Counted from the first letter of the stretch, positions 60,168 to 64,000 are shown. The stretch: DNA of 64,000 nucleotides from Candidatus Woesearchaeota archaeon (GCA_019322805.1 JAHWIC010000003.1:964-64963), one strand, 5' to 3'. Made by a program: numbers and translations. Notes: generated by a model not told the origin, from the letters alone.

Positions 60168-60177
60168 TTTATAAATA
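60168..60177 (+). promoter_or_regulatory. TATA-like box upstream of the NTPase locus
   Basis: TTTATAAATA begins 29 nt upstream of the TTG start at 60197. Confidence 0.4.
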
Positions 60178-60196
60178 ATGTTCTATTATATAGTCG

Positions 60197-62365
60197 TTGG
60201 GGGTTAAAACGACAAGCTTTGGTAAGGTTGAATTGGATATAGTGGATTATCTTGATTTCTTGTTAGGTAAAACTAGTGAAGGTTATATACCTCCAGTTAG
60301 AAAAGACGCAATCCACGTTGCTTCTGAATTACCTCCTTTTTTTGAAAGGGCTCAAAGAGCATTAGAGGTTTTGCTTCCAGAGCCTGAAGAAAAAGGAACA
60401 CCGATTGTTATTTCTGACAGAGAAGAGATAATGCATGAGTTTCATCTTTTGGGTCATGGCAAGACTGGAACAAATAAAGAAGGGAGACTAACTGGATGGT
60501 CAGGGGACTTGCCATGCTCTTCATATAGGAAAGATGGCAAGGAAGAGCTTGGCGGAATAGAATTAGCAAGAGCACAGGCTGGAATAGAGCCTGATGGTGA
60601 GCTTAGTAGAACATTAGTAAAAAAAGTAGGTGTAAAAAAACTTAATCTTAATGACTTCTACTACCGATTTAGTGGGGATTTGCCAAGACAACTAGCCCAT
60701 ACTCTGTTATTAACAGGAGATCAAAGCCTATTCGAGGATGTGATGGGACTATCCGCAGTTATTTCAGCTGAGATTGCTGAAAAAGGCAATTTATATGATA
60801 TAGAGAAATATCATCGTTTAATTAAACTTGCGGCTGAAGCTGGTTTCATACCAACTCCTTTGTTAAGAGCCCAGTATTATGGTCCAATGGAGCTTTGTCC
60901 TGAAAAATTAAAGAAAGATGACCGAGACAGCTTCGTTGAACAAAGAGTCAGAGAAGTTGAACAAGAATTTGAAAGTGCACAGAAACAAGGGAGAATAGAT
61001 CCTAAGCTAGAATTTAACAAAAAAATAGCGCAAGCAGAAGCAGAAGACTTGGCTGATGCTTTGATTCACAGAAAAGATCTTTTGTTTGCGCATAGGGATG
61101 AAGGAGGTTATTATATAACTGAAAATAGGCTTGGTTTGGTTACAAGACTTGGTTATTTCTTTGATACTGTAAGAAACGTATTGCCTGAAGGAGAAAAGGT
61201 TTTAGCAGTAACTTCAAGCGGGTGCATAGATGTAAGCTCTATTCATTTTAGATATCTTGAACAAAAAGGAGATTTAGATATAAGGAATCCTAGCAAGAAA
61301 GTCAGAGGCAAGGTAGTTGTCATTAGATATGGCAGATTTAAAGGAAAAGAGTGCTATCTAAATGACCCTGGAAAATTAGAGCCATTAAGACAAAAAGCAA
61401 GGGACCAAATAAATCATCTCAGAAGCTTATCAATAGATTCTTTGATAAGGGATGAGGGAAAAGGCCTGTTGAGAACTCCTTTGCTGGGTTTTGCTGAAGA
61501 TGGGGAGCATAAGCCTTACTCTGAAAAACTTGAGGATGCCATTCGATCACCAAATCCAGTTATTATATTTGGACATGGCGGCCAGGGAAAGAGTATGTTA
61601 GTTACTATGATTGCAGACATGTTCTTAACTGACTCAAGATATTCCGGTGTTGTGCCTGTCTTGATGAATGCTGAAGACGTAAATAAAGGAGCGAGACTAG
61701 CATTAGAAGCTGGCAAGGATATGTATTCTTACTTAAAAGAAGAAGCAGGTATTCCATCACTTCCATCAGAACTTCAATCCGAATGCAAGGCTGCTTTTAT
61801 TATAGATGACCACCAAAAGCTTCATTCCGAGTATAGGCCTGAGCTGGATGAAGCAATACATAAATTAAGGAAAGAAGGTCATTATGTTGTGCTTTTATCC
61901 AGGATGGAAAGGACAGATGTACACCCGCCTTTCAACGAAGGTTATAAGACTATGCAGATCGATAGGGATGGCATTGCACGCCAAACAGACGAATTCATAA
62001 AAGGCAGGATTAAAGAAGGTGATGCTGAAAGGTTTAGGGAATATGCTGCGCAATACGATGCTAGTGTTACAGGCCATTACCTTACAAAATTGTTCCTTAC
62101 AATGATATCTCCAATGGGCCAGGGTGTGAGTGATAGAGTTTTGGAATATATGACCAATCCTCCAATAAGAAGTGCGATAGAACAAGGCATACCATTGACA
62201 AAAACACAACTTTACCAAGCTCAGACAGATTATATAACAGCCTGCGATATTCTTAGAGGAGGTTTTGAATATTCTGCACCTGATCAGTTAAGGGCTGAGA
62301 TTAACAGATGGAAGGATATATTGGCTGAGAAGGCATTTACAGATGCCCCAGCACCAAGAAGTTGA
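60197..62365 (+). CDS. STAND/NACHT-like P-loop NTPase with a large N-terminal domain of unknown function
   Basis: Walker A IIFGHGGQGKSMLV and Walker B AAFIIDDHQ in the C-terminal third. About 470 N-terminal residues have no motif I recognise. Confidence 0.65.
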   Translation: MGVKTTSFGKVELDIVDYLDFLLGKTSEGYIPPVRKDAIHVASELPPFFERAQRALEVLLPEPEEKGTPIVISDREEIMHEFHLLGHGKTGTNKEGRLTGWSGDLPCSSYRKDGKEELGGIELARAQAGIEPDGELSRTLVKKVGVKKLNLNDFYYRFSGDLPRQLAHTLLLTGDQSLFEDVMGLSAVISAEIAEKGNLYDIEKYHRLIKLAAEAGFIPTPLLRAQYYGPMELCPEKLKKDDRDSFVEQRVREVEQEFESAQKQGRIDPKLEFNKKIAQAEAEDLADALIHRKDLLFAHRDEGGYYITENRLGLVTRLGYFFDTVRNVLPEGEKVLAVTSSGCIDVSSIHFRYLEQKGDLDIRNPSKKVRGKVVVIRYGRFKGKECYLNDPGKLEPLRQKARDQINHLRSLSIDSLIRDEGKGLLRTPLLGFAEDGEHKPYSEKLEDAIRSPNPVIIFGHGGQGKSMLVTMIADMFLTDSRYSGVVPVLMNAEDVNKGARLALEAGKDMYSYLKEEAGIPSLPSELQSECKAAFIIDDHQKLHSEYRPELDEAIHKLRKEGHYVVLLSRMERTDVHPPFNEGYKTMQIDRDGIARQTDEFIKGRIKEGDAERFREYAAQYDASVTGHYLTKLFLTMISPMGQGVSDRVLEYMTNPPIRSAIEQGIPLTKTQLYQAQTDYITACDILRGGFEYSAPDQLRAEINRWKDILAEKAFTDAPAPRS

Positions 62366-62373
62366 AATGAAAA

Positions 62374-63099
62374 ATGCGACAGGCAATAGATTCATCATTT
62401 CTCTACACAAGAGGAGACGGAAGCCAGGAATTTGTTCATGATACTTATAGAGATTTCTTTTTAGCTAGAGCTATTGCAGCTAGACTGTCTTCTGGAAGGA
62501 TTCCTTTTGACGAGGCTCATGAATTATGTTCTCGATATGAGAGTTCAAAATCGGATAAGTTTAGAAAAGCTTACGAAAGCCTGGGAGAAGCTCACCTCTT
62601 TCGTTTGCATTCTTCTGGAGAGAATCTAGACACTTTGCATCACCTTGTTGCAGAGATATCGGGTGATGATTTTATCCTTAGCATAAACGCGTTGGAGTTA
62701 AGCAGATTAAGAGACCTTATAGGCAAAAGAATAGAACTTAGATACTACGAGACAGACGATGATGATGAGGGGTTTAGACATGATTACGAGACTAAATATG
62801 GGCTTGTCCTTGAAGGAATTGTTGGAGGCAATGGAAGATTCTATTTTGTAGGTCATAGTGGAAATTTTTATTATGTTCTTTCTCCAGGATTTAAGCCTGT
62901 GCCTGAATATGTTGATGGAGGCATATTAAGGCACATATTTCACGCTGGAAGATCCATAAATGTAGAGCCTTTATTCAGGCCTGCAGATTATGTGCAGGGT
63001 TCCCAGATTAAAGCTATGGCTGAGAAAGGAGAATCTGAAACTAATCCATTTTTAGAGCCAGAGTACCTAAGAGAAAATGGATTGAGGTGGTTGTTTTGA
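62374..63099 (+). CDS. NACHT winged-helix-like module plus unknown C-terminal domain (possibly the severed C-terminus of the preceding ORF)
   Basis: It starts 9 nt after the NTPase stop in another frame. SSFLYTRGDGSQEFVHDTYRDFFLARAIA resembles the F.H.s.QE[FY]LAA motif that follows NACHT NTPase domains. Confidence 0.55.
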   Translation: MRQAIDSSFLYTRGDGSQEFVHDTYRDFFLARAIAARLSSGRIPFDEAHELCSRYESSKSDKFRKAYESLGEAHLFRLHSSGENLDTLHHLVAEISGDDFILSINALELSRLRDLIGKRIELRYYETDDDDEGFRHDYETKYGLVLEGIVGGNGRFYFVGHSGNFYYVLSPGFKPVPEYVDGGILRHIFHAGRSINVEPLFRPADYVQGSQIKAMAEKGESETNPFLEPEYLRENGLRWLF

Positions 63100-63105
63100 T
63101 TAAAA

Positions 63106-64000
63106 TGCCACAAGAAGCACCTGCAATTGAATCAAGCTTTCTCTTTGTAAGAGAAGTGCCACAGGATGATGGAAGTGTTAATTTTGAAGAAGGCTTTACC
63201 CATGATACCTATAGGGATTTCTTTAGAGCTAGAGCTATTGCTAATAGGATTAATGATGGGCAAGCAACTGTTGATACGTATTTTGAAGAGCAGTGGTCTC
63301 GTGAAGCTTATTGGTCATCTGATGATAAGAGAAGAATCATAGACCCTGCGTCCCAGGATATAGTTTTGTTTGTATCAGAAATGTTAGAACCTTCTCATGC
63401 AAGACAGTTAGTTCATCTTTTGAGCAGAGACCAGCTGCAAAGATTTGAGGCAGGTTGGCGCGGTCTAGGTAGATTTTCCAAGAGTATGTATACTGCCTTA
63501 AGGATTATGGGTACTCGCGATATAGGAGATGATGGACTGGAAGGGAAGATTTATAACACCTTTCTCGAGGCAGATATGGATAGTGATTTGCGTGAACTAT
63601 TGGATTCGAGACACTCTATCCCGTTATTGATAAGGATGGTTGAGTCAAATAGCAGGCATGCAGCATTTGCTGTTCCTTTGCTTAGGAGATATAAAGTAAA
63701 AGAAGCAAAGCAAGCTTTAATCTCTTTTATGGACTCAGGTCATGATGAAAGTTGGAAGGCTGCTAATTTGCTTCTAGATTGGGGGTTTGAGGAAGGAGTG
63801 CCTTTTCTTCGTAGATGCGCTATAGATACAGAACATCCAGAGCATGTACAAATTGCTTATGCTCTTCATGAGGCAGGATATAAGGATGTAGTAACTTCTC
63901 TCCGTAATTATGCTTCAGATACAAATCATCCAAAGCATGTAGATGTAGCTTATCACCTTTATAGGTGGGGCTATAAGGATATTGTTGAACATCTCCGTAA
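63106..64000 (+). CDS. Paralogous winged-helix-like module fused to HEAT-like repeats (3' end beyond window)
   Basis: My translation has no stop to the window edge. SSFLFVREVPQDDGSVNFEEGFTHDTYRDFFRARAIA is paralogous to the previous ORF. Later repeats include HPEHVQIAYALHEAGYKDVVTSLR and HPKHVDVAYHLYRWGYKDIVEHLR. Confidence 0.6.

Follow-up and report, generated by a model that had tools for sequence, protein, structure and literature searches.

Is the NTPase gene near the end of this archaeal sequence a damaged gene, or is it one component of a switch that is naturally divided among separate polypeptides? The gene, open reading frame (ORF) 1, lies close to the 3' end of a 64,000-nucleotide stretch of DNA from a Candidatus Woesearchaeota archaeon (G000:C35:964-64963), which we refer to as the window and which is the whole stretch that was analyzed. 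The window lies on a 97-kb contig of a 1.52-Mb genome that has a GC content of 38%, and its neighboring genes are of archaeal type. An earlier note on the window had pointed out that ORF1 is followed by two genes, ORF2 and ORF3, that open with related segments and then diverge, and had offered a frameshifted pseudogene, a programmed frameshift, or a multi-subunit STAND system with exchangeable sensor arms as explanations. Our analysis favors the last of these. With a probability of roughly 0.7, the locus encodes a genuine, naturally split NLR-like switch, belonging to the NACHT clade of STAND NTPases and made of separate polypeptides, in which a conserved layout places several sensor arms (here ORF2 and ORF3) beside one chassis, or core (ORF1), and which has a role in conflict. 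This is supported by a split that is real, a layout that is conserved, an NLR fold in the core, a motif in the arms that matches NLRP3, and relatives in which core and motif are fused in frame.

An ORF listing confirmed the three genes and their three different frames, with ORF3 open to the end of the window. The gap between ORF1 and ORF2, previously given as 9 nt, is 8 nt, since the TGA of ORF1 ends at 62365 and the ATG of ORF2 begins at 62374. A gap this short between genes in different frames could mean that an error or a frameshift has broken a single STAND gene beside an unrelated or duplicated neighbor, or that a programmed frameshift joins the two, and the first arm does lie in the -1 frame relative to the core in 6 of the 9 loci for which the offset was determined. 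However, the ORF1 stop codon is followed by a second TGA, at 62368-62370, in the frame of ORF2. Therefore, no single insertion or deletion and no -1 or +1 shift can join ORF1 to ORF2, and an upstream slippage site cannot exist. The offset is also 0 in two loci (L006 and L010) and +1 in another (L011), and this variation excludes a conserved recoding event. Programmed frameshifting or readthrough is thus ruled out by the stop codon ahead of the ORF2 ATG together with the inconsistent offsets. The same three genes, at approximately 90% nucleotide identity, are present in an independently assembled ENA contig from a related strain (L015), in which the junction, AGAAGTTGAAATGAAAAATGC, is identical letter for letter. 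Comparison of the window with L015 gives dN/dS ratios (nonsynonymous to synonymous divergence) of 0.245 for ORF1, 0.306 for ORF2, and 0.322 for ORF3, and values this low in all three genes indicate that each encodes a protein under purifying selection. Finally, the short length of ORF1 is the rule in its family: approximately 40 of approximately 45 full-length representatives are 636-783 aa long and end where ORF1 ends. The stop codon in the ORF2 frame, the identical junction, and the purifying selection contradict a pseudogene or a sequencing error, and we regard a broken or recoded single gene as extremely improbable.

We then asked what kind of NTPase ORF1 encodes. The Walker A (GHGGQGKS) and Walker B (FIIDD) motifs named in the earlier note are present at the residues listed in Table 1, and across 45 family representatives the Walker A lysine, K465, is kept in 44, the Walker B aspartate, D537, in 43, and the sensor-1 arginine, R569, in all 45. 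ORF1 therefore displays the combination expected of STAND NTPases, namely Walker A, a Walker B of the form hhhhD[DE], and a sensor-1 arginine. An AlphaFold2 (AF2) model of ORF1 built from 14 relatives has a predicted local distance difference test score (pLDDT) of 87 and a predicted template modeling score (pTM) of 0.80. When the C-terminal half of this model was compared with the PDB using Foldseek, the top matches were NLRC4 (4kxf, E = 6.5e-6), NOD2 (5irm/5irn), NAIP5 (7rav), and the NLRC4 inflammasome. The alignments to NLRC4, NOD2, and NAIP5 extend over approximately 330-360 columns and ranked above those to RFC, ORC, and Cdc6. A family profile searched against the PDB likewise matches the nucleotide-binding domain (NBD) of NLRC4 (E = 7e-4). 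Across the 14 relatives, Pfam reports NACHT in seven (best E = 6.6e-5), nSTAND3 in two, and NB-ARC in one; ORF1 itself scores 19.2 bits for AAA_22 and 14.5 bits for nSTAND3, both under the cut-off. Two defense-associated models, PDC-S60 of PADLOC (18.8 bits, E = 8e-5) and DS8 of NCBIfam (17.7 bits against a cut-off of 790, E = 6e-4), match the P-loop region only (residues ~440-565). These structural and family matches support a P-loop domain of STAND/NACHT type. Beyond the NTPase domain, residues 589-722 are predicted to form helices at pLDDT 85-93, with presumptive domain boundaries. In STAND proteins, the NBD is followed by a helical domain and a winged-helix extension (Kibby et al., bioRxiv 10.1101/2022.07.19.500537).

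Given that ORF1 ends within this region, where is the remainder of the STAND module? The N-termini of ORF2 and ORF3 share 46% identity across 71 aa (E = 8e-11). This places their paralogy well beyond chance and bears out the proposal that ORF3 opens with a module paralogous to that of ORF2; we found no further paralogues in the genome. The module is SSFLYTRGDGSQEFVHDTYRDFFLARAIA in ORF2 and ESSFLFVRE...GFTHDTYRDFFRARAIA in ORF3. When 29 arm N-termini and 4 fused segments are aligned, the module resolves into a strand (SSFLY), a turn (DG), a second strand (xFVH), and a helix (DTYRDFFLAKYFADEINSG), and F20 and H22 (ORF2 numbering) are invariant in the 19 modules of the type found here (type A, defined below). 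The motif reads F20-V-H22-D-T-Y-R-D-F-F-L-A in ORF2, and its ORF3 counterpart is FTHDTYRDFFRA. When a profile of the module was searched against 177,635 distinct PDB sequences, the 12 best matches were all NLRP3, on SFIHMTFQEFFAA, with E values of 0.009-0.04. With a longer profile that spans helical domain 1 (HD1) and the winged helix, the NLRP3 alignment stretches across the wing hairpin, at a weaker E value of 0.7. The motif FxHxxxQEhxA is conserved in the winged-helix domains of NLRs. In Apaf-1 (H438) and NLRC4 (H443), its histidine contacts the beta-phosphate of ADP, and the H443L variant of NLRC4 is constitutively active (PMC7583971). ORF2 and ORF3 therefore carry, in trans to ORF1, the motif that characterizes the NACHT clade. 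The specific but statistically marginal NLRP3 match supports identification of the module as the wing hairpin and histidine helix of a winged-helix domain. The secondary structure and the spacing suggest that the cut falls inside this domain, with its first helices contributed by ORF1 and its hairpin and histidine helix by the arm. Thus, the winged-helix motif that the earlier note saw at the start of ORF2 and ORF3 stands, and a whole winged-helix domain in each does not.

Further evidence that module and core belong together comes from the relatives. Besides the short cores described above, the family contains a few members of 1082-1323 aa, and in four of these (P0004, P0006, P0008, and P0013) the motif F[IVT]H[DP][TS]FRE follows the core in frame, after which the proteins continue into pentapeptide/beta-propeller or helical-repeat regions. 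ORF2 and ORF3 thus open with a segment that is covalently attached to the core in some relatives. A search for similar arrangements, which the earlier note had recommended, yielded ten further loci, from metagenome contigs and from metagenome-assembled genomes (MAGs) labeled as DPANN or Methanosarcinales. Every related locus that was fetched has a single core followed by co-directional, closely spaced or overlapping arm genes that bear the module (Table 1). Of the ten, eight have 2-6 arms, one on a short contig has at least one, and in one the contig runs out just as an arm begins.

These loci fall into two subtypes. Type A cores have a Walker A of the form G[HA]GG[QE]GK, a Walker B of the form DD[YH][QH]K, and a C-terminal helix ending ...LAE[KF]AF, and type B cores have GNCGLGKT, DGYDE, and a C-terminal ...W[ST]L... 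helix. The core subtype matches the flavor of the arms in 11 of 11 loci, with F.H[DN][ST]Y in the arms that accompany type A and HREFVPF[ND]EE in those that accompany type B. This covariation of the sequences is as expected for a coevolving interface, and shared ancestry also contributes to it. The family is rare: there is one distant match in 60 genomes of the same order, and 54 representatives were found at E ≤ 1e-30 among 1.84 billion entries. The sole match in the 60 genomes (G050:C33:16063-23061; L008 and L009) consists of adjacent open frames of 748 and 1158 aa and is 27% identical to the NTPase region of ORF1.

What follows the module differs from arm to arm. The C-terminal ~170 residues of ORF2 have no match in Pfam, PADLOC, NCBIfam, or the PDB, and the sole relative of ORF2 among 5.8 billion proteins is P0016, which is 88% identical and is encoded at the same position in L015. 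In ORF3, HEAT-like repeats of 31 residues are visible in the sequence; HEAT_2 reaches 19.7 bits, short of its cut-off of 27.7, and there is a weak PDB match to a designed repeat protein (E = 9e-4). HEAT scores of arms in related loci reach 212 bits, and the C-termini of these arms are mostly HEAT/ARM repeats, with one FGE-sulfatase domain and several that lack a known domain. In one arm (L012:10369-11649), the docking module is accompanied by HEAT repeats and by a receiver domain of the response-regulator type (E = 6.9e-12), a composition which hints that a phosphorelay could feed the switch.

The evolution of the arms raises the possibility that they are not simultaneous subunits but a store of alternative cassettes, one of which would be placed next to the core, or fused with it, by recombination between conserved 5' and 3' ends, in the manner of polymorphic toxins or shufflons. 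Between the window and L015 (L015:3999-5435 for ORF3), ORF3 is only 61% identical, in comparison with 87-88% for ORF1 and ORF2, and its synonymous divergence (dS) of 0.77 is approximately 3-fold higher than the 0.20-0.28 of the other two genes. This suggests that ORF3 has been exchanged or is mosaic rather than that it simply evolves faster. The arms of L003 and L010 have 180-230-nt 5' ends that are 84-96% identical and 42-57-nt 3' ends that are 95-98% identical, and near-identical heads and tails of this kind suggest unequal crossing-over. In L010, the junction sequence TAAAATGCCAACTCT is repeated after the last arm and looks like a remnant of another cassette. The natural core-arm fusions could be taken in the same sense. 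However, all arms, the first among them, begin at start codons of their own that lie in a conserved context, cores invariably stop before the module, purifying selection acts on the whole length of both arms of the window, and these two share just 41 nt at 90% identity at the DNA level. A cassette store is very unlikely in our judgment; recombination probably diversifies the arm array without replacing independent translation of the arms. A tail of the form [LI][KR]P[KQR]GY[NI][PA]P..K.L is shared by many arms in L010 (10260-16825), L003 (8268-13344), L005, L006, L011, L013, and L014; the arms of the window lack it.

At the other end of the core, the N-terminal region, described earlier as ~470 aa of no assigned function, proved to be a domain of ~430 residues with a histidine-phosphatase fold of the dPGM type. 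Foldseek, which the earlier note had suggested for this region, matched the N-terminal half of the ORF1 model to PGM (1xq9) and BPGM (2f90/2a9j/2h4z), with E values of 2e-5 to 1e-4 and TM scores on the target of ~0.5. The family profile matches dPGM and CobC in the PDB (E down to 6e-7), and in these alignments GHG of ORF1 falls on the RHG motif, SDLPRA on SxLxRA, and TSSG on HGNS. Pfam His_Phos_1 matches 4 of the 14 relatives (best E = 5.5e-9). In a residue census of the 45 representatives (ORF1 numbering), the nucleophile His87 is kept in 43 of 43, Arg164 in 45 of 45, and residue 232 is acidic (Glu or Asp) in 45 of 45. In ORF1, therefore, a remodeled histidine-phosphatase fold precedes a NACHT-like NBD and a helical domain in one chain. 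In relatives, the same truncated NTPase carries other domains at this position, namely TIR (P0040 and P0052), DUF4365 (P0055), and Pkinase (P0050), which supports the suggestion that the N-terminal domain is the candidate effector. The arm that follows the TIR core P0052 starts 8 nt after it with MRSTFLYTDSEGTPQFVHNTYRDFFIAREYA... and carries the FGE-sulfatase domain. Of two metagenome scans for the neighborhood of TIR cores, the first returned nothing and the second only generic TIR proteins, and the neighborhood was located through protein homologues and their contigs. A His_Phos_1 gene lies ~1.2 kb 3' of the arm array in L005 (13285-13914) and runs off the fetched locus; it may be a second core and hence a second copy of the system.

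The features of the locus and the arm counts of the related loci are collected in Table 1. The placement of the candidate TATA box, TTTATAAATA, would fit a leaderless or near-leaderless transcript, which would be unusual with a TTG start, and the start assigned to ORF1 is backed by alignment, given that its relatives line up from residue 1. The likely start of ORF3 is ATG 63105 (MPQEAP...), in the AAAATGCC context that arm genes of related loci also have at their starts. Extension of the contig beyond the window, as had been advised, gave the end of ORF3 and revealed a convergent neighbor that lies 4 nt past it, so ORF1, ORF2, and ORF3 form a closed three-gene block. This neighbor (contig C35 65590-66534, minus strand; window coordinates 64627-65571) encodes a 314-aa protein that has an AbrB/MazE-type N-terminal domain and a PhoU-like appearance. 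A homologous AbrB/PhoU-like gene (26-68% identical) stands tail-to-tail with the arms wherever downstream sequence is available, which is the case for seven loci (the window, L003, L005, and L011-L014). The gene family is multi-copy, with up to 11 members per genome; close orthologues (61-68%) are seen only beside the system, and the best match in relatives without the system is at most 42%. This regulator may be a fourth component. Beyond it, at contig positions 66725-72823 (window coordinates 65762-71860), lies a gene for a 2032-aa predicted surface protein with Cys-rich and parallel beta-helix-like repeats.

Table 1. Features of the locus in window coordinates, and arms that follow the core in the window and in related loci.
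Feature or locus	Position	Strand	Description
Candidate archaeal TATA box	60169..60178	+	TTTATAAATA; 19-28 nt 5' of ORF1 start; motif resemblance read from the sequence
ORF1, core gene	60197..62365	+	722 aa, TTG start; effector-like domain, NTPase, and helical domain
N-terminal domain of ORF1	60197..61471	+	dPGM-like histidine-phosphatase fold with helical inserts; residues ~1-425; GHG 86-88, DLPR 161-164, TSSG 339-342
P-loop NTPase domain of ORF1	61481..61960	+	residues ~429-588; Walker A 459-466, Walker B 533-537, sensor-1 R569
Helical region of ORF1	61961..62362	+	residues 589-722; helical domain 1 and presumed first winged-helix helices; ends ...RWKDILAEKAFTDAPAPRS
Core/arm-1 junction	62363..62373	+	TGA 62363-62365, TGA in ORF2 frame 62368-62370, then ATG 62374
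ORF2, arm 1	62374..63099	+	241 aa; module residues 1-45, orphan domain residues ~70-241
ORF3, arm 2	63105..64000, on to 64622 beyond the window (read from the contig)	+	505 aa; module, then HEAT-like repeats
Window			this genome; 2 arms after the core
L015			related strain, ENA contig; 2 arms
L003			JGI metagenome contig; 3 arms
L005			JGI metagenome contig; 2 arms
L006			JGI metagenome contig; at least 2 arms (contig ends)
L010			'Methanosarcinales' MAG; 3 arms
L011			Woesearchaeota MAG; 6 arms
L012			Nanoarchaeota MAG; 6 arms
L013			'Methanosarcinales' MAG; 2 arms
L014			Woesearchaeota MAG; 3 arms
L026			ENA metagenome contig, TIR core; at least 1 arm (short contig)

How might such a divided switch operate? 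ORF1 is the chassis and stops before the segment that normally completes the STAND module. ORF2 and ORF3 are alternative arms, each of which opens with the missing hairpin and FxHxxx[RQ][DE]FF helix and continues into a different putative sensor. In the mechanism that we propose, docking of an arm's module on the core would complete the winged-helix domain, and in type A arms the module histidine would contact the ADP beta-phosphate and hold the core closed and inactive. Binding of a ligand at the sensor of the arm would release this lock and, by analogy with NLRC4 and Apaf-1, permit exchange of ADP for ATP and oligomerization, which would activate the N-terminal domains. With two arms in the window and up to six in relatives, one chassis could answer several triggers. 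A more speculative variant, which we consider unlikely, is that the arms are detachable safety locks more than simple receptors, with the histidine that keeps the NTPase off in its ADP-bound state provided in trans. The removal, degradation, or sequestration of an arm, such as when a viral anti-defense protein hits its sensor, would unlock the core and fire the remodeled histidine-phosphatase domain, which would be a novel type of NLR effector, on a phosphorylated metabolite or protein, in a guard/decoy arrangement with the AbrB/PhoU-like regulator as its fourth component.

TIR and DUF4365, the latter of which we take to be a nuclease-type fold, are typical effectors of conflict systems. More generally, effector swapping, rarity, and fast sensor turnover are typical of such systems, and tandem duplication with fast divergence is the usual signature of an arms race. 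Because the N-terminal domain is swapped for TIR, DUF4365, or a kinase, the family is sporadic, and the arms diversify quickly, the role of the system is most likely in inter-genomic conflict, that is, defense against viruses or mobile elements, and signaling is possible.

Several observations weigh against this picture of a split, NLR-like conflict switch. The interaction of core and arms, the ATPase activity, and a defense phenotype are all predictions. The Walker B region of ORF1 reads DDHQK and lacks the NACHT signature D[GAS]hDE that follows Walker B (Kibby et al., bioRxiv 10.1101/2022.07.19.500537). The signature is found in 27 of the 45 representatives, all of the other subtype, whereas the clade of ORF1 has DD[YH][QH]K; the family is therefore NACHT-like, and the motif of ORF1 is derived. 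The winged-helix assignment depends on a marginal E value of 0.009 and on position, and Pfam gave no relevant winged-helix match at E ≤ 10 with the ORF1 C-terminus, the arm N-termini, virtual core-arm joins, or the fused relatives. When P0013, one of the fused relatives, was modeled with AF2, the N-terminal domain and NBD were confident, but the stretch that contains the motif (residues 683-722) fell under pLDDT 50. In type B modules (HREFVPFNEE), the histidine lies in a different column and is replaced by glutamine in L006, so a histidine lock cannot be universal. As for the N-terminal domain, the arginine of the RHG motif (position 86) is absent in all 45 representatives, which have Gly, Ser, or Ala instead, and the second catalytic histidine (position 340) is His in 28 and Ser in 15, with Ser340 in the clade of ORF1. 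ORF1 thus has the fold of branch 1 histidine phosphatases without their full catalytic core, and on these residues its N-terminal domain may not be an active enzyme.

The assignment to conflict is challenged from another side. A PADLOC run on the locus, one of the checks proposed for it, gave no system model beyond the weak PDC-S60 match; curated models for Avs and other anti-phage STANDs in PADLOC and NCBIfam reach the P-loop only, and there are no obvious defense genes in the neighborhood. The receiver domain in the L012 arm and the constant AbrB/PhoU-like neighbor, with its close orthologues confined to the system, fit signaling equally well, and the invariant His87, R164, and E232 suggest a real phospho-substrate site. 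The same architecture could accordingly serve as a housekeeping or regulatory switch of the MalT/AfsR type, in which the arms sense metabolites or phosphorelay states, the phosphatase-like domain dephosphorylates a cellular target (cf. SixA and PGAM5), and the AbrB/PhoU-like gene is part of the circuit. Such a role is harder to reconcile with TIR and DUF4365 at the same position in relatives, with the sporadic distribution, and with arm arrays that duplicate in tandem and diverge as fast as the comparison of ORF3 between strains indicates. We view a signaling switch as possible but rather unlikely, and retain the split NLR-like conflict switch as the preferred reading.

The usual description of an NLR or STAND immune switch is of one polypeptide that covalently joins sensing, nucleotide-dependent switching, and output. 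If the split described here is borne out, communication between sensor and NTPase could be approached with parts that are mixed, titrated, and mutated separately, and a small genome (1.5 Mb) could widen its recognition by duplicating the sensor part alone. The family may show whether fused NLRs descend from multi-subunit forms or multi-subunit forms from fused ones. With it, a histidine-phosphatase fold joins the domains that occupy the effector position in NLR-like proteins, and the range of NLR-like systems now includes DPANN archaea. Our literature searches (split STANDs, histidine-phosphatase effectors, and bNACHT operons) returned no account of arrays of winged-helix-plus-sensor subunits and no report of an NLR-like protein whose effector position holds a histidine-phosphatase fold.

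The closest known counterparts are the single-chain NACHT NLRs (NLRC4, NLRP3, NOD2, and bNACHT), which have the same order of effector, NBD, helical domain, winged helix, and repeat sensor, and which provide the best structural matches. An FxHxxxQEhxA-type motif, swapped N-terminal effectors including TIR, and fast sensor diversification are common to both. In contrast to these proteins, the chain here is cut inside the STAND module, and the histidine segment and sensor form a separate protein, of which this locus encodes two in tandem and relatives as many as six. ORF1 also differs in having DDHQK rather than D[GAS]hDE at Walker B and a histidine-phosphatase fold in the effector position. Genes for bNACHT proteins are rarely found in operons (Kibby et al., bioRxiv 10.1101/2022.07.19.500537). 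The Avs proteins (Gao et al.; Nature 2026, PMC13581612) are likewise STAND NTPases of prokaryotes with a sporadic distribution; they carry effectors at the N-terminus and helical-repeat sensors at the C-terminus, and some of them are mentioned in passing as 'split proteins' whose adjacent sequences had to be analyzed (PMC13581612). The present system differs from Avs in that it matches no Avs, PADLOC, or NCBIfam model past weak P-loop similarity, and PMC13581612 describes no array of alternative sensor subunits.

The N-terminal domain of ORF1 shares with branch 1 of the histidine phosphatases (dPGM, BPGM, CobC, SixA, and PGAM5) the fold, the nucleophile histidine, the SxLxRA arginine, and the acidic residue, and differs from them in the missing RHG arginine, the serine in place of the second histidine, the large helical inserts, and the fusion to a STAND NTPase. 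In NAIP/NLRC4 inflammasomes and in the sensor/helper NLR networks of plants, several sensors feed one executor, and all partners are full NLRs, each with an NBD of its own. The locus described here follows the same many-sensors logic, but its sensors lack an NBD and appear instead to complete the regulatory domain of the executor.

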